The notes under the pieces are model-generated. The model searched no databases. It saw only the letters and a list, made by a program, of their open reading frames with translations, and was not told the DNA's origin. From assembly GCA_964651915.1 (NCBI GenBank), contig CAZYZI010000002.1, positions 1,559 through 59,809 of the forward strand: 58,251 nucleotides of DNA. The letters run 5' to 3'. The position numbers and the translations under genes were made by a program. Source of the stretch: an uncultured archaeon (GTDB lineage Archaea; Thermoplasmatota; Poseidoniia; MGIII; CG-Epi1). Below, piece by piece: positions 2,745 through 58,251 of the stretch. Position 1 is the stretch's first letter; the number at the start of each line of letters is the position of its first letter.

Positions 2745-3710
2745 ATGGTAAGCACTTATTCTGAAGCTGGAGTAGATATTGATGCCAGTGAAAAGGCAAC
2801 TGAAGCTCTAATTGCTCAAATTAAAAATGTTGGCAGAAAAGGTGATGGTGAAGCAATAAAATTAGATAATGGATTTGCTGGATTAGTTAAACTTGGAGAT
2901 GGTGCACTAGCAATGTGTACCGATGGAGTAGGCAGCAAATTGTTGCTGGCTGAAGAAATGGATTCTCTTCACACTGTTGGAATCGACTGTGTAGCAATGA
3001 ACACTAATGATCTAATCTGTGTAGGAGCTGAGCCACTAAGTTTTGTTGATTACGTAGCACTAGACAAACCTGATGAAGAATTAATGGCTAAACTTGGAAA
3101 GGGATTAGCAGAAGGATGTAAGCAGTCTAACTGTACCTTATCAGGAGGAGAAACTGCTATTCTTCCAGAATTAGTTCATGGTTTTGATATTGCAGGAACT
3201 TCTGTAGGATACGTAAAACAAGACGAAATTATTGATGGTACAAAAATATCTGAAGGAGATGTTTTGATTGGGTTGAAATCAAGTGGACCACATTCTAATG
3301 GATATACATTGATTAGAAAATTATTCAACGGAGATAAAGAAATTGGAAAACAACTCGTTGAGCCTACCCGAATTTATGTCAAAGAGATAATGAATTTGAT
3401 TAAGCAAGTCGAAGTTCATGGAATCGCTCATATTACTGGAGGGGGATTGGACAATATTAGTCGAATAAATGATAATTTTCAGTATGTAATTGACAAACCT
3501 TTGCCTGTGCCTTCCGTATTTGATTGGTTACAACAAAGAGGGGATGTTGAAAATAATGAGATGTATCGAACATTCAATATGGGAATGGGAATGATTATTG
3601 TAGTTGACAAAGATGATGCCGAAAAATCAGTATCACTTCTTGGAGAATATGCACAAATTATTGGTTCAGTTAAAAACGGAAAAGGTGTACTGCATAATGC
3701 AATAGATTAA
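2745..3710 (+). CDS. purM: Phosphoribosylformylglycinamidine cyclo-ligase (AIR synthetase)
   Basis: YSEAGVDIDA N-terminus, DGVGSKLL, LSGGETA and GPHSNGYTLIRK motifs typical of PurM. Confidence 0.9.
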   Translation: MVSTYSEAGVDIDASEKATEALIAQIKNVGRKGDGEAIKLDNGFAGLVKLGDGALAMCTDGVGSKLLLAEEMDSLHTVGIDCVAMNTNDLICVGAEPLSFVDYVALDKPDEELMAKLGKGLAEGCKQSNCTLSGGETAILPELVHGFDIAGTSVGYVKQDEIIDGTKISEGDVLIGLKSSGPHSNGYTLIRKLFNGDKEIGKQLVEPTRIYVKEIMNLIKQVEVHGIAHITGGGLDNISRINDNFQYVIDKPLPVPSVFDWLQQRGDVENNEMYRTFNMGMGMIIVVDKDDAEKSVSLLGEYAQIIGSVKNGKGVLHNAID

Positions 3711-41482: not shown

Positions 41483-41558
41483 AGCCCCCTAGTGTAGCGG
41501 TCCATCATTCAGGCCTTTGGAGCCTGAGACCTCGGTTCGAATCCGAGGGGGGCTACCA
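41483..41558 (+). tRNA. tRNA-Gln (anticodon UUG), CCA encoded
   Basis: Manual cloverleaf. Acceptor AGCCCCC/GGGGGCT with the archaeal Gln A1-U72 pair. D-arm GTGT..ATCA. Anticodon stem CAGGC/GCCTG with loop CTTTGGA. T-arm CTCGG-TTCGAAT-CCGAG. Discriminator A followed by CCA. Confidence 0.92.
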
Positions 41559-50141: not shown

Positions 50142-52805
50142 ATGAACTCAGACAAAATAGCTCCAATAATTATGGCTGTTCTTTTTTTGAGTTCAATTCT
50201 AGCTAGTAGTGGATGTTTAGAAGATACTGATGATGAAGAAATCTATTATGATGACAATAATGGTGACAACAACTCTGATGATTCTCAAAATAATAATGGA
50301 AACAACAATAACCAGAATAATGATGGTCAAAACCAAAACGATGATTCAGACAACGATGGATACGATGACAACATTGATAAGTTTCCAAATGATCCAAATG
50401 AATGGAAAGATTCTGACGAAGATGGTGTAGGAGATAATTCTGATGATTTCCCAAATGACAAATGTGCAACAAATGATATGGATGATGATGGAAAACCAGA
50501 TGCAATCAAAGAAAATTGTAGCACTTCTCTGACAGAAGATGATGACATTGACGGGGATGGATTCAACAATACTATTGAATTATTAGTTGGTACAAATCCT
50601 GAAAGTCCCTCATCAAGACCTATCGACTACGATAGTGATGGAATACCTGATGCATTAGATGATGACATGGACAATGATGGAATGAATAATACGTTAGACC
50701 TATGCCCTAGAGGAAATATTGACTGGGAGGCTGGCAATTCTAATGACGACTGGGACATGGATGGATGCAAGGATGATACTGAAGACAAAGATGATGATAA
50801 TGATGGAATAAATGATAGAAATGATGAGTGTGAAGAAACTCCATTAAACGAAATTGCAAATGATGAAGGCTGTTCTGCATCCCAAAGAGATTCTGATGGA
50901 GATGGAATTGCTGATTCGGTAGATATATGCTGGGGTGATGATAGTACGGGAGATAACGATGGGGATGGATTGTGTAGCGATGGGGATGAATGTCCAGATG
51001 GGCCTTTCCTTTATGGTGAAGAAGTTGATGCGCAAGGTTGTTCTTACTTTGAAAAGTCAATACCTTGGAATGGAGGTCCTTACGCTACTAATTATATGGG
51101 AACTGCAGGAGATTTCACAGTACCTGAACCAATTGATGAAAATCTGAATTTTACTAATGATTGGGTCTTCAAACAAGAATGGAGTGGAAAAGATACTTAT
51201 GTTTTCATTATCTATAATCCAACCGATCCTGATAGTGTAATAACTTGGAATTCAGCCAACCCAATTGGGCAAGCAACGGAACTGAGTTTAATGTTTGAAA
51301 AATCTCCTGAGAATGTACACTATTTCTTTGGATCATATCGTGATGGAGGCTGGATGGGCGATGTGTCCTATATGGCTGGACGTGTTAATGCAGCATTAAC
51401 TACAATGAATAATGAAGATAGAGAACATTGGTCTGACAGGGTTCATTACATTGCAATGGATGCAAATTTCTTGGAAGGAAGTATAGCTGATTTCATATCT
51501 GTAAAAGAATCTCCTGCTTGGTTTTGTATAGATCAATTACAGCGATGGCAAGAAGTAGGTAGTTTCTGGGATCTTAATTTTAACCAGAATTTTAGCTGGT
51601 ACAGATTCCATTTTATTGCCAACGAGCCACTTTATTTCAATTTTGAATTTGGACTTGAGAGAGAATTGGCAGCTATGGAATACCACACTAGTGTACCATG
51701 TCATGAAAGACAATACATGCCTAAGAATTGTCTCAAAGGAGAATCTGTAACTTTACTTGAATGGAATATGGGAGAGAGTTACACTCATGGCGGTGGTTGG
51801 GGAGGAGGTACAAATATTCGAAATATCGAACTTCCTGAGAATATGGAAGATTTTGATTCATTCGCAGTTTACACCTATGAAGCATGTGCTGATCACAAAG
51901 GATGTAATGAATGGGATTTTATTGGATATCTAAATGCATATCAATCTAAATGTTCATTATCTGAATTTGATATTTATGATGATTGTATAAATCAAATACT
52001 TGCACAATTTGATTCTCAAGAAGATTGTGAAAATGCAGGGCATAGATGGGATGATGGAGGAGAAGATGGTTCGTCATCATGTAAAGGTAAATGGGATCGT
52101 GTTTGGAAAGCTGAGATAGGACGATATATCACGGCATACAATCGTGAAGGTAGATATATTTCTGACGCAAGTCCTATGTTAGGTGTTCTAAAAAATGAAG
52201 ACATTAATGAATTTAATTATTGGCAACCTAATGCTTATGGCCTAACCGTAAAATTATTCTTCTGGAATGAAAATAAAGAATATACTCCTGTAGGTGCTGA
52301 ATATCTACATGGAGCAACAAGAAAATTCAACTTAGATTACAATAACATATTTGGTAATGAGAATCCATTCGAATACAATGTTACGGATGATACAGAAAGA
52401 GTAGAAATTGTTACTTTTTTTACGGGGCATGGTCACAGTAGTACTGATGAAAATTGTGCTGAATTCTGTAATCACCAACATGAGTTTACTGTTAATGGAA
52501 ATACTCTTGACCTGCTTCAACATCCAAATGGTGGAACTTCATACGGGTGCTACAATAGAGTGAATGAAGGAGTTTCAGCTAACCAATACGGAACGTGGGT
52601 CTATGGAAGAGCAGGATGGTGCCCTGGTCAAGATGTAGAATATAATCGCATAGATATCACTAGCCAATCTAATGTTGGAAATAATCAAATTAGTTATCGT
52701 GGCTTATACCAAGGAGAAGAATATGATCCAAGTGTAACTGATCCTGACGGTTATTTACCTGAAATTAAGCTACGTATGTGGATTATTACTTACGAAACTC
52801 AATAA
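50142..52805 (+). CDS. Secreted putative lipoprotein: N/D-rich linker, thrombospondin type 3-like Ca-binding repeats, C-terminal PNGase F-like domain
   Basis: Lipobox-like ILASSGC. DxDxDGxxD repeats (DSDGDGIADSVD and others). GCNEWDFIGYLNAY and GHGHSSTDENCAEFCNHQHEFTVNG...YGCYN...GRAGWCPGQDVEYNRIDI parallel Elizabethkingia PNGase F CDEWDRYANVYV and GWGHA...GCAEWCFRTHTIAINN...RAGWCPGMAVPTRIDV. Confidence 0.88.
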   Translation: MNSDKIAPIIMAVLFLSSILASSGCLEDTDDEEIYYDDNNGDNNSDDSQNNNGNNNNQNNDGQNQNDDSDNDGYDDNIDKFPNDPNEWKDSDEDGVGDNSDDFPNDKCATNDMDDDGKPDAIKENCSTSLTEDDDIDGDGFNNTIELLVGTNPESPSSRPIDYDSDGIPDALDDDMDNDGMNNTLDLCPRGNIDWEAGNSNDDWDMDGCKDDTEDKDDDNDGINDRNDECEETPLNEIANDEGCSASQRDSDGDGIADSVDICWGDDSTGDNDGDGLCSDGDECPDGPFLYGEEVDAQGCSYFEKSIPWNGGPYATNYMGTAGDFTVPEPIDENLNFTNDWVFKQEWSGKDTYVFIIYNPTDPDSVITWNSANPIGQATELSLMFEKSPENVHYFFGSYRDGGWMGDVSYMAGRVNAALTTMNNEDREHWSDRVHYIAMDANFLEGSIADFISVKESPAWFCIDQLQRWQEVGSFWDLNFNQNFSWYRFHFIANEPLYFNFEFGLERELAAMEYHTSVPCHERQYMPKNCLKGESVTLLEWNMGESYTHGGGWGGGTNIRNIELPENMEDFDSFAVYTYEACADHKGCNEWDFIGYLNAYQSKCSLSEFDIYDDCINQILAQFDSQEDCENAGHRWDDGGEDGSSSCKGKWDRVWKAEIGRYITAYNREGRYISDASPMLGVLKNEDINEFNYWQPNAYGLTVKLFFWNENKEYTPVGAEYLHGATRKFNLDYNNIFGNENPFEYNVTDDTERVEIVTFFTGHGHSSTDENCAEFCNHQHEFTVNGNTLDLLQHPNGGTSYGCYNRVNEGVSANQYGTWVYGRAGWCPGQDVEYNRIDITSQSNVGNNQISYRGLYQGEEYDPSVTDPDGYLPEIKLRMWIITYETQ

Positions 52806-53749
52806 TTGTCTATTTCAGTTCTAAAATACTTGTAGAAACACCACATTGAAACTGCTCCAAGTATATGCCATAGAGCATGACCTTGTAACAGCGAATCTGG
52901 ATCACACAGAACTCCGCCTGTTCTACTTGGCTGCCAAATAATTGTAGCTAAAAAGTATGAGGCGAAACCTGCCCAAAAATAAGGTGCATGAGTTCTTTCC
53001 AACTTAATGTCTTCAATTCTGTATAAGAAAAATGCTAAAGCTGCCCAAAGCAGGATTGCTTCAAATTCACTCAAGATAAAATCTATTGGTGTTTTACCTG
53101 GGTTTGTATACAAAAATAAGAACAAAATTATCGATGTGGGTAACAAAAATATTACATGTGGTTGTTTCTGATATTTTAGTGCTAACTCTTGAGAAAGCCA
53201 AATTCCAATTAAAGCACCCCACAAAAATGTGAGAAGGCTAAATTTCCACAACAATAGTGCAAAAATAACGTTAGCACTCAAATAATAGATAACAAATTCT
53301 TTTTCGGACCATCTAAGAAATCTTGAAAAGTTATAGAACACAGGCATGGAAATATACATCATCATACCAGAAACATCTAACCAACCTCCCCATTCTGTAT
53401 TGAAACCGTGCATGGCAAAACTGCCCATGCCTACTGCTACGCATGAAATTCCGTATAATATAAGGAACCAACTTCTTGTAGAAAGAGAAGGTTTACCTTC
53501 GGTTGGATCATACTGTGCCATCCAAAGAATATATAGTCCAACAAATACAAAAGCTAAATTCGAAATTGTGTTTGTAGGTTCACGAATCCAAGTTTCGCTA
53601 ACCTTTTCACAATAGCCTGAAGCACTTGTACCTGTCCACTCCCAACCATTCAAGATATACAATAATCCATAAACTACAAATATTATACTTATAACAAAAA
53701 ACACAGAAAAAAATTCTTTTCTTTCTTGAATATATTTGTTATCTATCAA
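52799..53749 (-). CDS. Alkaline ceramidase / CREST-family 7-TM hydrolase-like protein
   Basis: GYCEKVSETWIREPTNTISNLAFVFVG parallels the ceramidase WCE..Y....IAEF.NT.SN motif. HGFNTEWGG and GHALWHILGA His motifs, 7 TM helices. Confidence 0.7.
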   Translation of the reverse strand: MIDNKYIQERKEFFSVFFVISIIFVVYGLLYILNGWEWTGTSASGYCEKVSETWIREPTNTISNLAFVFVGLYILWMAQYDPTEGKPSLSTRSWFLILYGISCVAVGMGSFAMHGFNTEWGGWLDVSGMMMYISMPVFYNFSRFLRWSEKEFVIYYLSANVIFALLLWKFSLLTFLWGALIGIWLSQELALKYQKQPHVIFLLPTSIILFLFLYTNPGKTPIDFILSEFEAILLWAALAFFLYRIEDIKLERTHAPYFWAGFASYFLATIIWQPSRTGGVLCDPDSLLQGHALWHILGAVSMWCFYKYFRTEIDNY

Positions 53750-53940
53750 GCTATCTTAATTTTCCTTACGTATCCACAATCTTTACATTCATAATTAGGA
53801 TAAAGATCTGGATTATTTGGAGACGCACCATGCCAATGGAAGCAATATTTCCTACACTTAACACAATAAGAATTTTGTTTGTACCCTTTGTACTTATGTG
53901 GCCTATCCTTCGCAAATTCATTAATGTCTGTTTCAGCCAT
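53746..53940 (-). CDS. Small zinc-ribbon protein
   Basis: CVKCRKYC...CKDCGY four-Cys pattern. 4-nt overlap with the downstream ceramidase-like gene. Confidence 0.55.
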   Translation of the reverse strand: MAETDINEFAKDRPHKYKGYKQNSYCVKCRKYCFHWHGASPNNPDLYPNYECKDCGYVRKIKIA

Positions 53941-54052
53941 AATTTATTACCTTTAGGCATTTCGTATTATAAGGATTGAGGGAGTTTATTTTATCAAAAA
54001 AATTTAGGCATCATGGCATAGTTTTTTATAATAAGGAAACAGAATTAGATTT

Positions 54053-54250
54053 ATGAGAAGAAGGCACATGGCTTCAAGTGAAGCTAACAAAACTACTCTA
54101 TGTGGCCACAGTGCAACCATTCAGGAATTTAGAAGAATGGAAAAAATAAAACCTGAAGAAGTAACCTGTCAGCGTTGTTTGAATATTTACTCTAGGATTC
54201 AAAACAAAGAAATGAATTCCGAAAAGGCAAAGCTTTCTGCCAAAACCTAA
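54053..54250 (+). CDS. Small basic hypothetical protein (weak call)
   Basis: 65-aa ORF with a C..H...CxxC pattern and no other support. Confidence 0.3.
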   Translation: MRRRHMASSEANKTTLCGHSATIQEFRRMEKIKPEEVTCQRCLNIYSRIQNKEMNSEKAKLSAKT

Positions 54251-54319
54251 ATTAGATAAAATTTTTTTTAAGAAAACATCCGTTCTACATAAATAGAGTG
54301 TACTAGACTAACATCCGCC

Positions 54320-54670
54320 CAAAATAAAGTGGGCACAGTTCCGTCGACCTTCTTGCGTTGGATGACTTCCCTGTGCCCGGGGTGGAATTGGTTCATGACC
54401 CGAAGGTCATGTCCCTTTTCCGGCGTACAAGTTTTGTTTCCCGCAGCACCCTGCTTGTTTCCTGGCTTGCGTGCTTAGATCGTTTCCCCTTGTTCTCCAA
54501 GTTGTTTCCCTCTTATCCCGCTCGATTGTTTCCTCCGGTGTCCCGGTTGTTTCCTTCTTGCATTCAAAGATCGTTTCCCCTTAGTTTCCCAAGTTGTTTC
54601 CTTCTATGCTTTCCCTTTGTTTGTTGGCTTCATAACCCGAAGGTCATGTTTCCCAAACATCGGGAACTTA
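54320..54670 (-). ncRNA. Candidate about 350-nt structured ncRNA with 10 GGAAAC motifs bracketed by two UUCG hairpins
   Basis: A GC-rich island in AT-rich intergenic DNA. CTATATA box at about 54688-54694 on the minus strand. Hairpins at 54631-54648 and 54394-54411. Terminal 8-bp helix 54331-54338/54371-54378 followed by CTTTATTTT on the minus strand. No ORF on the minus strand. Confidence 0.55.
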
Positions 54671-54771
54671 CAACAGACAAGGGGGGTATATAGAACCTTT
54701 CAGATATACTTAAATATGATGAGCGCAAACAACGTTTTTCACGCTATTTTTTACAACTTTTTTGTACTGAA

Positions 54772-55116
54772 TTAATGTTTCCAAATGTGTCCGGTGTCAT
54801 CCAAATCGAAAACTGAACGTAAAAGTTCATCCGAAAACTTCTTGCCAAGAGCATCTGCAGCATCATAGTATGATTTCAGAACTTCCATATCTACTTCACT
54901 TTTTTCAGTATCAAAACCAACTTTAATGTCAAAATGGAAATTTACTTCAGATTCTTTTTCATCTAAATCAAACGATCTTAGATAACCAGCTTCCAATAAT
55001 AATTCTCCTAAATCAATCAACTTCTTACCACGTTCTGTGCTGAATATCTCAAAGCTTACTTTGGCCATATCCTTTGGATTAGAGTCTACTATAAGTCTGT
55101 GTTTGCCATCTTGCAC
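54772..55116 (-). CDS. Hypothetical acidic protein
   Basis: 114-aa ORF downstream of the EVE gene. The alternative start at 55068 avoids the overlap. No recognised family. Confidence 0.5.
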   Translation of the reverse strand: MQDGKHRLIVDSNPKDMAKVSFEIFSTERGKKLIDLGELLLEAGYLRSFDLDEKESEVNFHFDIKVGFDTEKSEVDMEVLKSYYDAADALGKKFSDELLRSVFDLDDTGHIWKH

Positions 55117-55556
55117 ACTTCATCGAAATGTTCTTTGTCTACTGGTTGTACTGATAATCTTTGGCCGCGCTTGATTACAAGCATCCCTTCTAAGCCATCA
55201 TTATCCTTCAATTGATCCAGCGTCACCATTTCATCGAACTTAGTTACTGGTTCCATATCTACCAAAAACCATCTAGGTACTTCTTCTGTGGCTTTAGGGT
55301 CATAGTATTTTGATTTCTTATCGAATTGTGTGATGTCAGGATATGATTCTTTACAAATCTTAGAAATCCCTGCAATATGTGGTGGTTTAGTGTTAGAATG
55401 ATAATAGAGAACCATATCGCCTATCTTCATCTTATCTCGCATGAAATTTCGAGCTTGATAATTCCGAACTCCATCCCAATGAGTACTGCCGTCTTTCATT
55501 AGATCATCAAAAGAATAAACATGAGGCTCGCTTTTCATCAACCAATAATTTGGCAT
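55089..55556 (-). CDS. EVE (PUA-like, THYN1-type) domain protein
   Basis: MPNYWLMKSEPHVYSFDDL...WDGVRNYQARNFMRDKMKIGDMVLYYHSN is the canonical EVE N-terminal pattern. Confidence 0.85.
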   Translation of the reverse strand: MPNYWLMKSEPHVYSFDDLMKDGSTHWDGVRNYQARNFMRDKMKIGDMVLYYHSNTKPPHIAGISKICKESYPDITQFDKKSKYYDPKATEEVPRWFLVDMEPVTKFDEMVTLDQLKDNDGLEGMLVIKRGQRLSVQPVDKEHFDEVCKMANTDL

Positions 55557-58251
55557 TATTTAGTTAATTCCTTAGCCTGTTTAACCCATTCGTCGCGCTT
55601 GACTCTTCCTGGGAAGAATTCAATTGCAACATTTACTTCCTCTTCTAAATCGGGAGTCATTCGAGCAATCTGCACAAACATATAGATTCCTAAAGCATTG
55701 AGTTTTTCTTCGATGAACGGTCCAATTCCTTTGATTACTTGTAGGTCATCTTTTGCAACAACAATAGATGCTGCGACAAATGCTCTAGTTAATCCTCCAA
55801 TTCCAAGCAATGCATTTCCTTTCTTACTCGTCCAAGTAATAATTTCACTTCCATCTGAATCTGTGATAGTCGCAGTTCCTTTCTTTTCGAAAGCTGAAGC
55901 ATCTTCCAAATCAATTTCACTTGCATCTTTCTCTACTGGTTTAGATAATGTGCTGCTCGTTGCCTCACCTAAAACTTCAAAATCAATTTTTTCTGAGCGT
56001 GCTTTAACTCTTTCAAGTTCTTTTTCCTTCTTTTCTTCTTTAGTTAATGGAACTTCTTCAATCGGTTCTGACTCTTCCTTCGCTACGTCAACGGCCCAAC
56101 TGAGATAAACTGAAGCAGTACCTAACTTGATTAGACCCTCATACTCAGCACCATCTGTGCTTGGTTTATCATCCTTGAAATTAACACGGAATTTGATTTT
56201 ATCATCATCATCTGCGACAAGCGCTGATTGCCTACCTATTTCATTTGGATCAGAAACTATCGCAAATCTTTTGCCATTTTCTTTGAGGTCCAAATCTTGC
56301 ATGTTTACAATTCCACCTGATTTCAAACCAGATATTGTAATAACTTGTTTAGAAGAAATTTCTTCTCCTGGTTCAAGTCCTTTAGCTGGCGTAATTACAA
56401 ACGGATCCATCTTAGTTCCTGCGCCACCATCAAATTTAGGTTTGGAAGATGTGTTTTCAGGTTCAGGATTAGATGTTGCTACTACTTCTGATTCTTCTTC
56501 TTCCTTCTCTGTCTCTTCACTCTTTTCAGAAACATGAATGAATGCCTCGCCTTTGAATTTACCATCAGAATGCTTCATCACAACTTCGTACTTATATTCT
56601 CCAACTTTCTTTGGATGTCCTGAAATTATTCCTGTCTTCGAATCTATTTCTAAACCTTCAACTAAATCTCCTGAAATACCATAAGTAACTCTTCTCAAAT
56701 CTTCATACTTCATGTAACTTCTGTAATTCTTTGCATATTCATGCAATGAAGGAACCATGCGAATCTTCGCATCACCATCACCAATTGTGTAGTCTACATG
56801 TGCTGGACCATAGATTAGTGCATTGTCATATTGCCTCTTGAGAAGAGGAATTAGAAGAAGTAAGAGAAGTAGTAAAATCCAACAACACGTAGTTTTCCAG
56901 TCGCCAGCTGAAGTAGAGGTACTGCCTGTTGAAGCTACGCCTTGTAGCATATCATTGGTACCGTCACCATCTGAATCTGCAGGATTTCCTGTTGCATCTG
57001 GATTATATTCATCCTTGTCTAAAATTCCATCCTTATCAAAATCACCGTTAGCATTTGTGGGCAATGGATCCCAAGCATCTGGAATTCCATCATCATCTGT
57101 ATCGACTATCAATGGGCTCGAACCAAGTGCTGCCTCTTCGTCATCCGAAAGGCCGTCGTTGTCATCATCAGTATCTTCATTGTTACCAGTACCATCACCA
57201 TCCGTGTCTAACCATTCAGCTGCATTTGTTGGAAATGCATCTTCTGTATCATTGTATCCATCGCCATCATCATCAGGGTCAGTGCTATCTGGATCGAAAT
57301 CTCCATCAGTATCTAGTGGTGTACTTGTGAAATTCAACGGGTCTGAACCTTCCGCTATCTCGACCGTGTCGTTGTAACCATCGCCGTCATCATCAGTGTC
57401 AGCATTGTTTCCAACTTCATCTCCATCTGTATCCTCCCATTCATTAATGTCATCAGGGAACGCGTCGAAATCATCTGCGATTCCGTCACCGTCTCTATCC
57501 TCAACCTCACATATCTGTATCTCGTTAACTGTGACATTGAATGGGCCGTCACAATAGCCATCATCATCTGTGTCTGGATCTAATGGATCTGTTTCGCCTT
57601 CATCTACAGTGCCATTCCCATTTGCATCTTCTACAATATCATCCAACCCGTCATTATCATCATCTGGATCCGCATTGTCGCCTATACCGTCCCCATCATT
57701 GTCTGCCCAATCGTTTGGATCAGTTGGGAATAAATCTGGACCTACTTCACAAATGCCCTCGACAGCGATTAAACCGTCACAATAGCCATCATCATCTGTA
57801 TCAGCTTTCAACGGATCTGTGGCTGGGTCTGATGATTCCTCCGTAGTATCATTCAAACCATCATTATCGTCGTCTGTGTCTTCATTATTTCCAATACCAT
57901 CTCCATCAGTGTCAAACCATTCTGTATCATTAGTTGGGAATAAATCCGGACCGGCCTCACATATTCCTTCGACAGCATTTGGTCCATCACAATAGCCATC
58001 GTCATCTGTGTCTGGATCTAATGGATCTGTAACTGGGTCTGATGATTCCTCCGTAGTATCATTCAAACCATCATTATCATCATCTGTATCTGCATTATTG
58101 CCAATACCATCTCCATCAGTGTCAAACCATTCTGTAGCATTAGTTGGGAATAAATCCGGACCGGCCTCACATATTCCCTCTACTGCAATTGAACCGTCAC
58201 AATAGCCATCATCATCGGTATCAGCTTTCAACGGATCTGTGGCTGGGTCAG
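55556..58251 (-). CDS. Large membrane-spanning surface protein (5' end outside the window): TSP3-like Ca-binding repeats, one TM, Ig-like segment, C-terminal HhH domain (COG3743 type)
   Basis: The frame is open to the window edge (...DPATDPLKADTDDDG). Repeated DTDGDGIGNNADTDDDNDGLND. TM CCWILLLLLLLLIPLL. C-terminus DDLQVIKGIGPFIEEKLNALGIYMFVQIA...GRVKRDEWVKQAKEL. Confidence 0.88.
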   Translation of the reverse strand, partial: DPATDPLKADTDDDGYCDGSIAVEGICEAGPDLFPTNATEWFDTDGDGIGNNADTDDDNDGLNDTTEESSDPVTDPLDPDTDDDGYCDGPNAVEGICEAGPDLFPTNDTEWFDTDGDGIGNNEDTDDDNDGLNDTTEESSDPATDPLKADTDDDGYCDGLIAVEGICEVGPDLFPTDPNDWADNDGDGIGDNADPDDDNDGLDDIVEDANGNGTVDEGETDPLDPDTDDDGYCDGPFNVTVNEIQICEVEDRDGDGIADDFDAFPDDINEWEDTDGDEVGNNADTDDDGDGYNDTVEIAEGSDPLNFTSTPLDTDGDFDPDSTDPDDDGDGYNDTEDAFPTNAAEWLDTDGDGTGNNEDTDDDNDGLSDDEEAALGSSPLIVDTDDDGIPDAWDPLPTNANGDFDKDGILDKDEYNPDATGNPADSDGDGTNDMLQGVASTGSTSTSAGDWKTTCCWILLLLLLLLIPLLKRQYDNALIYGPAHVDYTIGDGDAKIRMVPSLHEYAKNYRSYMKYEDLRRVTYGISGDLVEGLEIDSKTGIISGHPKKVGEYKYEVVMKHSDGKFKGEAFIHVSEKSEETEKEEEESEVVATSNPEPENTSSKPKFDGGAGTKMDPFVITPAKGLEPGEEISSKQVITISGLKSGGIVNMQDLDLKENGKRFAIVSDPNEIGRQSALVADDDDKIKFRVNFKDDKPSTDGAEYEGLIKLGTASVYLSWAVDVAKEESEPIEEVPLTKEEKKEKELERVKARSEKIDFEVLGEATSSTLSKPVEKDASEIDLEDASAFEKKGTATITDSDGSEIITWTSKKGNALLGIGGLTRAFVAASIVVAKDDLQVIKGIGPFIEEKLNALGIYMFVQIARMTPDLEEEVNVAIEFFPGRVKRDEWVKQAKELTK
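57590..58251 (-). repeat. Near-identical about 210-nt in-frame tandem repeats (70-aa modules), at least 3 copies and continuing past the window edge
   Basis: Blocks starting cacaatagccatc at about 57778, 57988 and 58198 share long identical runs. An example is ggtctgatgattcctccgtagtatcattcaaaccatcattatc. Confidence 0.8.

Follow-up and report, generated by a model that had tools for sequence, protein, structure and literature searches.

Several described systems stand close to the locus reported here. CsrB, RsmZ and RsmY are bacterial motif-array RNAs, and CsrA is likewise a bacterial family. Archaeal Hgc RNAs were found as GC-rich islands in AT-rich genomes. EVE is a PUA-like domain that binds modified bases. 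In beta- and gamma-proteobacteria, slow-evolving stand-alone EVE genes adjoin the 6S RNA gene (ssrS), and EVE has been proposed to read modified bases in 6S RNA (Bell, Wolf and Koonin 2020, PMC7641849). In Sulfolobus, the protein SmAP2 binds a deduced GGA-rich motif, GGAUGGAUAUUAGGAAAUG, which ends in GGAAAU (PMC5587771). Here we describe a GC-rich intergenic island at positions 54320 to 54670 of a 58,251-nucleotide (nt) stretch of DNA from an uncultured Poseidoniia archaeon (assembly GCA_964651915.1, contig CAZYZI010000002.1), hereafter called the window. On comparative sequence evidence, this island is a structured, conserved non-coding RNA (ncRNA) gene of about 350 nt on the minus strand, with a secondary structure of its own. 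It represents a new family that is absent from Rfam 15.

The island was first noticed in a preliminary description, made from the letters of the window, as a cluster of ten exact GTTTCC hexamers (GGAAAC on the minus strand). All ten were found exactly where they had been placed, starting at 54436, 54457, 54482, 54504, 54528, 54549, 54573, 54584, 54596 and 54648 of the plus strand. In the whole 58-kb window, both strands taken together, GTTTCC occurs 29 times against 26.8 +/- 4.8 expected; because the hexamer is thus at chance frequency window-wide, ten copies within 218 nt on one strand form a true cluster. Consistent with this, when the A/G-rich RNA was mononucleotide-shuffled 20,000 times, no shuffle held more than four GGAAAC, and thus none reached ten. 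The inverted GGGAAC (54662-54667) is present as described, as is the raised GC content of the island (0.45-0.53 vs about 0.32-0.39 in the adjacent flanks). The internal repeat was also recovered, with a period of 45 and 3.3 copies at 54455-54605 in Tandem Repeats Finder, and with copies at 54483-54513, 54528-54558 and 54575-54605 in a repeat search. The 111-amino-acid (aa) open reading frame (ORF) on the plus strand, 54358-54693, does exist and is, as had been suspected, a non-coding by-product, since the GTTTCC spacings (21, 25, 22, 24 nt etc.) place copies in all three frames and the homologues of the RNA carry 1- and 2-nt indels. A CRISPR array, in which direct repeats of about 23-50 nt alternate with unique, non-conserved spacers, was also considered and rejected: the repeated element is only 6-9 nt long, and the 12-17 nt between its copies fold into covarying helices and are shared across species.

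The gene and its promoter-like element are as follows.

54321-54669, minus strand: RNA gene, about 349 nt; conservation begins and ends here in 35 distinct homologues

54687-54700, minus strand: promoter-like element, a purine-rich GAAAGG resembling a B recognition element (BRE), then the TATA box TCTATATA (TAGTATATA in some relatives)

The earlier proposal of a minus-strand transcript is supported by folding, by pairing and by the signals at both ends. The fold z-score against shuffles is -4.3 for the minus strand and -2.7 for the plus strand. Across the homologues the structure holds 161 G-U cells that would become A-C mismatches in a plus-strand transcript, which fixes the strand of the RNA as minus. 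The CTATATA box was confirmed at 54687-54693, one position away from the 54688-54694 first given. This TATA box is kept in all homologues, about 20-25 nt before the conserved 5' end, and the spacer of about 20 nt between it and the conserved AAGUUCC varies freely among homologues, as a promoter-to-start spacer would. By the known archaeal geometry of BRE, TATA box and transcription start site, the element is a probable archaeal-type promoter of the RNA. At the other end, the 8-bp helix GGGCACAG/CUGUGCCC (54378-54371 / 54338-54331) and the following ACUUUAUUUU were found as described; the hairpin GGGYACAG...CUGUGCCC and the ACUUUAUUUU run are nearly invariant across homologues. Oligo-T terminates archaeal transcription, and the terminal hairpin with its U-run is likely an oligo-U termination signal. 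From the promoter geometry and oligo-T termination, the transcript is expected to run from about 54669 to about 54321, with a predicted 5' end at 54667-54669 and a predicted 3' end within the U-run 54321-54328.

The RNA matches no known family, whether at gathering thresholds or at relaxed E-values. When the whole window was scanned with Rfam 15 (4227 models) at the gathering threshold, only a tRNA at 41483-41555 was found; a scan of 54200-54800 at E <= 10 returned two chance matches, both outside the RNA, and scans of six divergent homologous loci at E <= 0.1 returned none. The Rfam Csr/Rsm models gave no match at any of these settings. A literature search for an earlier description of this RNA found nothing relevant.

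Homologues were collected from eight GTDB species representatives and 39 metagenome contigs, giving 35 distinct full-length sequences from marine metagenomes and from metagenome-assembled genomes labelled Marine Group III (MGIII)/Poseidoniia. Scanning the GTDB species representatives with a 98-aa protein encoded next to the RNA identified eight genomes, one of them titled "MGIII-CG-Epi1", and the RNA was present in all eight. Scanning the JGI metagenome contigs with one invariant, family-specific 20-mer, which recovers only homologues keeping that 20-mer, gave 49 loci, comprising 39 with the RNA and ten unrelated chance matches. The same 20-mer was absent from viral contigs. A generic pattern of three GGAAACRA with 10-20-nt gaps hit only simple tandem or coding repeats in viral contigs among the matches listed. 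As a separate observation, IMG/VR contigs of about 11 kb (L031, L035, L042, L054 and others) contain short tandem GGAAAC/CGAAAC repeats near 6.3 kb, e.g. GGAAACAACCGAAACAGACGGAAACGACAC..., which look like simple or coding repeats unrelated to the RNA. Every homologue carries seven to ten copies of GGAAAC in the sense orientation, and the other strand carries none. The proposed check of homologous intergenic regions for covariation thus gave a positive answer, with the motif array and hairpins conserved and compensatory pairs found.

The surroundings of the RNA are conserved as well. In the window, three features lie upstream of its promoter-like element.

54722-54745, minus strand: terminator-like hairpin of the upstream EVE/98-aa operon, then conserved T-rich CUCAUCAUAUUUAAG

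54772-55068 (54772-55116 from an upstream GTG), minus strand: 98-aa acidic protein (114 aa from the GTG), between the EVE gene and the RNA

55089-55556, minus strand: stand-alone EVE-domain gene (Pfam EVE, 2.8e-57; PDB relatives 2ar1, 2eve and THYN1 3eop)

In contigs encoding homologues of the 98-aa protein, the gene order is a large surface protein, EVE, the 98-aa protein and a gene-free gap of about 570 nt, followed by a variable gene (Fer4, flavodoxin or a small ORF), a ceramidase and an N-glycanase-like protein. The gap always contains a clear homologue of the island. In all 50-plus loci with sufficient sequence, the RNA follows the EVE gene immediately and shares its strand, at a distance of about 95-100 nt. 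The terminator-like hairpin lies between the EVE/98-aa operon and the RNA's promoter element and separates them; in relatives, hairpins of other sequence (GCGCAA/UUGCGC, AAUGAG/CUCAUU) occupy the same position at the operon end. Seven further clusters, whose EVE orthologues are 64-71% identical, were looked at as well. In six of them, of Marine Group II (MGII) type, an aminotransferase gene directly follows EVE without room for the RNA. In the seventh, which has sigma-70 neighbours and is probably bacterial, a Fer2 gene follows after about 270 nt; the RNA was not found there, and the gap itself was not inspected. As far as these searches see, the RNA appears to be confined to MGIII (Poseidoniia).

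The secondary structure was built by hand and consists of the following parts, in which the GGAAAC copies are numbered with M.

54611-54666, minus strand: 5' domain, a long irregular hairpin of P1 UUCCC/GGGAA, P2 UGUUU/AAACA, P3 GG/CC and P4, a 7-bp apical stem, with a UUCG loop

54573-54601, minus strand: arm a, with M3 (54596-54601), Ha CUUGG-GAAA-CUAAG (54580-54593) and M5 in GGGGAAACGAUC (54573-54578)

54511-54570, minus strand: arm b, enclosed by S1, with M6 (54549-54554), Hb CCGG-GACA-CCGG (54535-54546) and M7 (54528-54533)

54482-54509, minus strand: arm c, with M8 in GAGGGAAAC (54504-54509), weak hairpin Hc (54489-54501) and M9 (54482-54487)

54424-54471, minus strand: arm d, enclosed by S2, with M10 (54457-54462), Hd GCAG-GGUG-CUGC (54443-54454) and M11 (54436-54441)

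54384-54421, minus strand: 3' domain hairpin P5, with GGAA/UUCC, GG/CC and a 7-bp apical stem with UUCG loop, 2x2 purine loops between

54321-54378, minus strand: terminal hairpin GGGCACAG...CUGUGCCC, then ACUUUAUUUU; 100% paired, 3' strand and U-run invariant in nearly all homologues

This structure has 71 pairs and was counted over the alignment of the 35 sequences (2461 cells). Standard pairs make up 94.1% of the cells, vs 29-48% in control structures whose partners were slid by 1-3 columns, and both-sided (compensatory) changes occur in 18 of the 71 pairs. The covariation score of 0.246 compares with 0.036-0.072 for the slid structures and was reached by none of 500 shuffles. RNAalifold, run on 12 sequences, found 14 compensatory pairs.

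The support extends to nearly every part of the molecule. In the 5' domain, P1 shortens on both sides jointly (UUCCC/GGGAA to UUCC/GGAA), P2, which MAFFT misaligned, switches from UGUUU/AAACA to ACUCU/GGGGU, ACUCU/GGAGU or CACUCU/GGGGUG, and P4 has three compensatory pairs. The motif copy M1 (54648-54653) covers P3, a GAAA/AAG internal loop and the first P4 pair. In Ha every cell is paired (100%); one of its pairs is compensatory and two have changed on one side. The helices around arms b and d are formed from linkers. S1 consists of S1a (UCUU/AAGA) and S1b (UGC/GCG); S1a covaries between U-A in 20 and C-G in 15 sequences (to UCCU/AGGA), S1b changes from U-G to C-G, and Hb from G-C to A-U in seven sequences, all three helices being 100% paired. 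S2 (CG+CAAG / CUUG+CG) has two compensatory pairs in S2a. In Hd all four pairs are compensatory and 100% paired, the variants being GCAG/CUGC, GCGG/CCGC, GCGA/UCGC, CCGG/CCGG, CUAG/CUAG, UCAG/CUGA, GUAG/CUAC and CUGG/CCAG. P5 is 98% paired, with GGAA/UUCC replaced by GGAU/AUCC in 12 sequences and three compensatory pairs in its apical stem. Hc is poorly supported, with 64% of cells paired across homologues. The two 18-nt hairpins that had been noted as near-copies bracketing the array (54394-54411, 54631-54648) are both present and 95% identical in the window; this near-identity is found only in the window's lineage, and elsewhere their sequences differ (for example CAUAUCC..GGAUAUG vs CCUGACC..GGUCAGG), both hairpins being always present and covarying.

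The core between the 5' and 3' hairpin domains is made of four units of about 45 nt, each a short hairpin flanked by (R)GGAAAC(R)A. Unit A resembles unit C (81%) and B resembles D (73%), from which a duplicated 92-nt double unit is deduced. Arms a and c are free, and arms b and d are enclosed by S1 and S2. The loops of the core and terminal hairpins are GNRA-type or invariant (GAAA, GACA, GRUG, GCAA/GUGA), and the terminal hairpin, whose tetraloop is GCAA (GUGA in relatives), contains symmetric GGAA/GGAA and AA/AA internal loops. A defined architecture is indicated by the three conserved GNRA-type tetraloops together with the numerous symmetric purine loops. Two long-range pairings offered by RNAalifold were rejected: that of the 5' UUCCC with the GGGAA of M8, as the local P1 shortens compensatorily, and that of the GGGG of M9 with a CCCC, as the GGGG varies without compensation. 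We also observed that the 5' UUCCC (54662-54666) is complementary to the GGGAA of every motif, and that in the single-sequence minimum-free-energy folds of several homologues it pairs with M1, not with its P1 partner, which suggests possible alternative conformers.

With the fold in hand, the conservation of the motif itself can be described. The ten-motif array proves to contain eight conserved positions: in each of the 35 homologues these read G-A(3-4)-C after a G, apart from rare single changes, whereas the copies at 54584-54589 and 54549-54554 are not conserved. The former, the sole copy in a hairpin loop, is the GAAA tetraloop of Ha closed by G-C and gives way to AAGG or AAAG loops in other lineages; the latter (M6) is replaced by GGAAAAAGAAC in one clade. 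M5 is invariant in 35/35 and M8 is invariant too; M3 is GGAAAC in 32 sequences and AGAAAC in three, and M9 is GGAAAC in 34/35 and GAGAAAC in one. Seven of the eight conserved motifs lie outside Watson-Crick helices, directly at hairpin bases. In by-eye comparisons with consensus sequences, readings of the motif as kink-turn, H/ACA, C/D-box, bulge-helix-bulge or tetraloop-receptor element were considered, and none fits.

The position of the motifs on both sides of each hairpin raises the question of whether the two strands of one arm face each other, which we propose tentatively. Facing strands would give purine-rich internal loops of G-C / AAA-AAA / C-G, ending in two purine-purine mismatches beside the hairpin stem. 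The same theme appears where pairing is supported, namely in GG/CC-GAAA/AAG-C/G around M1, and again in the terminal hairpin with its symmetric GGAA/GGAA loop. In addition, the A-runs of M10 and M11, on either side of Hd, change length jointly, being (3,3) in 23 and (4,4) in 12 sequences and discordant in 0/35. A facing pair would need such concordance, and so would a symmetric dimeric reader; the concordance probably goes back to no more than about two independent events.

What could such an RNA do? The preliminary description had suggested a sponge of the CsrB type. The part of this proposal that stands is a stand-alone, modular non-coding RNA on the minus strand, with its own signals and many motifs on one strand. 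The looser, sponge-like part does not: the whole molecule is conserved, the number of modules is fixed and the linkers pair (S1, S2), so that the RNA is a defined multi-helix fold and not a string of exposed sites. A sponge or platform is still our best guess at the function. In the form we favour, at a probability of roughly 45%, the RNA would be independently transcribed and stable and would act as a rigid multivalent platform, on which pairs of motifs are offered to a single sequence-specific reader. Tandem duplication of the 45-nt unit (as the 92-nt double unit) gave rise to the core, and the four hairpin arms between the 5' and 3' domains would hold the motif pairs on a rigid scaffold. 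One sequence-specific factor, most likely a protein, would read all motif copies, bound as several copies or dimers, and the RNA would assemble or sequester it in about four dimers or eight copies. A common reader is suggested by the fact that the arm stems diverged and covaried while the eight motifs stayed letter-for-letter identical; that this reader is a protein we infer.

Candidates for the reader can be named among the neighbours and beyond. EVE is the slowest-evolving gene of the neighbourhood (80-100% identity vs 68-100% for the 98-aa protein), and the RNA is about as conserved as this slowest-evolving neighbouring protein gene. By analogy with the proteobacterial arrangement, it is conceivable, if speculative, that the EVE protein is the reader. 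As an observation on the EVE gene itself, in the locus L175 (7270-7745, minus strand, assembly MIZB01), where it stands beside an intact RNA, it is frameshifted mid-gene; the frameshifts may be sequencing errors and the gene no pseudogene, because the assembly is of low quality, with Ns (L188). This assembly has the RNA on four contigs (L175, L179, L180, L188), and the 98-aa gene is missing in all four. The 80 homologues of the 98-aa protein all come from marine archaea, named, where a name is given, as marine group II/III euryarchaeotes or Poseidoniales, and none falls below 67% identity. The protein is limited to the clade that has the RNA, and lineages within this clade differ in having it. 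Pfam gave no match to it; its AlphaFold2 model has a predicted local distance difference test score of 69, and the best Foldseek match (E 0.057) is to the ribosomal protein S8 N-terminal domain and ferredoxin-like folds. Its C-terminus DLDDTGHIW is invariant, and its final codons W-K-H happen to spell GGAAAC (54777-54782). A scan of five neighbouring proteins found no CsrA domain. Sm-like proteins would be a further candidate class, as a lead only, because the SmAP2 motif ends in GGAAAU.

Several points weigh against the platform and its proposed reader. Length covariation for motif facing is seen in only one arm (d), and arm b of one clade breaks the symmetry, with loops of 16 x 13 nt; together with the small number of independent A-run events, this asymmetry leaves the motif-facing model tentative. 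The homologues are fairly close (84% mean column identity), and some of the invariance may come from limited divergence. GGAAAC-hairpin-GGAAAC units elsewhere were not found in 461 kb of related DNA, a redundant, local sample of low power, and this absence gives no indication, within that low power, of mRNA target sites that the RNA would mimic. The adjacency of EVE and RNA may be mere synteny in a narrow clade, since conservation within MGIII extends to the entire neighbourhood and MGII lacks the link. The 98-aa neighbour, for its part, is acidic, lacks a recognisable RNA-binding fold and is missing from eight RNA-bearing loci.

The explanation that survives best beside the platform, unlikely on our estimate but to be taken seriously, is a machine or sensor made of RNA only. 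Here the motif would be structural, and a compact self-fold would be held by A-minor and tetraloop-receptor contacts within or between molecules, as an 'ornate' RNA like OLE, raiA, ROOL and GOLLD with a catalytic, ligand-sensing or self-assembling role. The very high conservation over the full length, linkers and loops included, the fixed number of modules and the fold z-score of -4.3 would all suit such an RNA, and so would the GNRA-type tetraloops (GAAA, GACA and GCAA/GUGA) and symmetric purine loops. Eight identical copies of 6-8 nt, however, are unexpected if every loop makes a different tertiary contact, since duplicated structural modules normally drift, as the arm stems did. Moreover, no long-range pairing or pseudoknot has covariation support, the GGGG/CCCC helix of RNAalifold being broken without compensation.

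We consider it improbable that the RNA acts by base pairing, its GGAAAC sites or conserved 3' tail binding a GUUUCC-containing segment of an mRNA, sRNA, tRNA or rRNA. Many identical short sites on one strand would fit a sponge of this kind, an archaeal RNA-RNA sponge has been put forward in the literature (RrrR, PMC5961385), and the RNA's own 5' UUCCC is complementary to the GGGAA of each motif and competes for M1 in some predicted folds. Yet a 6-nt seed is very weak, GTTTCC occurs at chance frequency in the window outside the locus, and the motifs sit at helix junctions with structure on both sides; no candidate partner is known. A rather doubtful variant of the platform brings in the adjacent EVE protein through base modification: the eight GGAAAC sites would carry a modified base, N6-methyladenosine (m6A) or 5-methylcytosine (m5C), read by EVE, and the RNA would store or titrate an epitranscriptomic reader. 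The m6A option is raised because the AAACA core fits a DRACH-like context.

It is quite improbable that the RNA is a cis-acting part of the EVE/98-aa operon, as a structured 3' untranslated region, or an RNA processed from one, by which the upstream genes would be controlled in stability or expression. Such a region would be expected to follow the EVE gene directly on its own strand, as the RNA constantly does at a distance of about 95-100 nt, but a terminator-like hairpin, a T-rich tract and a conserved BRE/TATA intervene between operon and RNA, and loss of the 98-aa gene leaves the RNA unchanged. Two last explanations are scarcely credible. A DNA-level array of GTTTCC sites for an origin-, iteron- or operator-like DNA-binding protein, to which the regular 21-25-bp period (about two helical turns) and the single orientation throughout would lend themselves, does not account for compensatory changes that keep RNA helices between the sites, for 161 G-U cells acceptable only in one strand's RNA, or for the promoter- and terminator-like signals that bracket the region. 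A divergent universal RNA (SRP RNA, RNase P RNA or another Rfam family) missed by the models would typically have this size of about 350 nt and form such a GC-rich island in an AT-rich archaeal genome, but none of the 4227 models matched at E <= 10 in the region or at E <= 0.1 in the six divergent loci, the 5' and 3' ends lie in separate hairpins and do not pair with each other as in SRP RNA, and no CR-I/CR-V sequence of RNase P RNA such as GAGGAAAGUCC is present.

Around the locus, further elements were observed. After the U-run of the RNA, at 54277-54306 on the minus strand, there is a second conserved element, (G)GUACACUCUAUUUAUAUCGAACGGA, containing the TATA-like CTATTTATAT; it also occurs, for example, in L005 at 2975-3005 and in L021 at about 3255-3285, and is kept in all lineages. 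The window keeps it even though the downstream gene is replaced there by a convergent small ORF. It is possibly a promoter, serving either the downstream Fer4/flavodoxin gene or another small transcript. In relatives, the leader of the Fer4-type gene shows a conserved AAAUAAACCCCCUCCUAAAUGG (L005 3050-3075, L016 4838-4862, and about 90 nt downstream of the RNA in L021 and L024), then GAGGU just before the start codon; this leader is not in the window. The two sequences could form an anti-Shine-Dalgarno/Shine-Dalgarno (SD) pairing or another cis-regulatory leader. A 64-aa Cys-rich ORF of the window (53746-53940, minus strand; ...YKQNSYCVKCRKYCFHWHG...CKDCGYVRKIKIA) is homologous to the zinc-ribbon-like C-terminal tail of a 265/266-aa protein (L175 5343-6140, L008 5451-6251), of which a 266-aa member has a Pfam flavodoxin match; the flavodoxin-bearing part seems to have been lost in the window's lineage. 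A lone plus-strand GGAAAC at 54035-54040 (AAGGAAACAGAA) lies 13 nt before the ATG of a 65-aa Cys-containing ORF (54053-54250) that is convergent with the RNA, and could be a chance occurrence, SD-like, or one isolated target-type site. On both sides of the locus lie genes for very large secreted or surface proteins (50142-52805, plus strand; 55556-58231, minus strand), with acidic, thrombospondin-type-3-like Asp-rich repeats and an N-glycanase_C domain, as is typical of Poseidoniia.

MGIII archaea are uncultivated and their regulation is almost unstudied; ncRNAs of planktonic archaea in general are barely catalogued. With eight identical GGAAAC sites around four hairpin arms, the design described here is easily recognised, and the RNA is short enough for in vitro transcription. 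The family is a candidate addition to Rfam and a marker gene for MGIII genomes. If the RNA does titrate or assemble a protein, the CsrB/6S style of regulation would extend to Archaea. Should the link with EVE prove functional, experiments would gain a first handle on what stand-alone EVE proteins do beside ncRNA genes; and if EVE reads modified bases on this platform, no protein-sequestering ncRNA would have been described earlier in Archaea, and the RNA would functionally parallel the proteobacterial pairing of EVE and 6S.

Set beside the described systems, the RNA shares some traits with each. SmAP2 is, as a reader of this RNA might be, an archaeal multimeric RNA-binding protein with a GGA-rich motif ending in GGAAAU, but it belongs to another phylum and its 19-nt composite site occurs in mRNAs, not in an array. 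The likeness with 6S RNA lies in the gene context: in both cases a conserved ncRNA gene that stands alone has a slow-evolving stand-alone EVE gene as its immediate neighbour. 6S RNA, however, forms one rod of about 184 nt, whose central bubble imitates an open promoter, and binds the sigma70 holoenzyme, whereas the present RNA has several arms and about 350 nt, its host has no sigma factors, the gene order is unlike, and the EVE link is missing in MGII. Identity with 6S RNA was rejected, given the multi-arm structure in place of one long hairpin with a central bubble, and given that no Rfam 6S match was obtained. OLE, raiA, GOLLD, HEARO, ROOL and archaeal Hgc, orphan structured RNAs that came to light through comparative genomics, are resembled by the present RNA, likewise an orphan, as a conserved, covarying GC-rich intergenic island with a complex fold, GNRA tetraloops and purine-rich internal loops; it differs from them in its eight identical short motifs and obvious internal tandem duplication, and it has no Rfam 15 match to any of them. 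CsrB, RsmZ and RsmY are, like this RNA, stand-alone and a few hundred nt long, with their own promoter and terminator and many GGA-containing purine motifs on one strand, about 20-25 nt apart and interleaved with small hairpins, a layout suiting dimeric or multimeric readers. In contrast to the CsrB-type motif, A(N)GGA in hairpin loops, the motif here is GGAAAC(R)A at hairpin bases; in CsrB-type RNAs only the motifs are conserved and copy number and spacers are fluid, whereas here copy number and the whole sequence are fixed, the linkers form enclosing helices and the host is archaeal. Overall, the design recalls the bacterial motif-array RNAs and differs from them in motif, rigidity and host domain.

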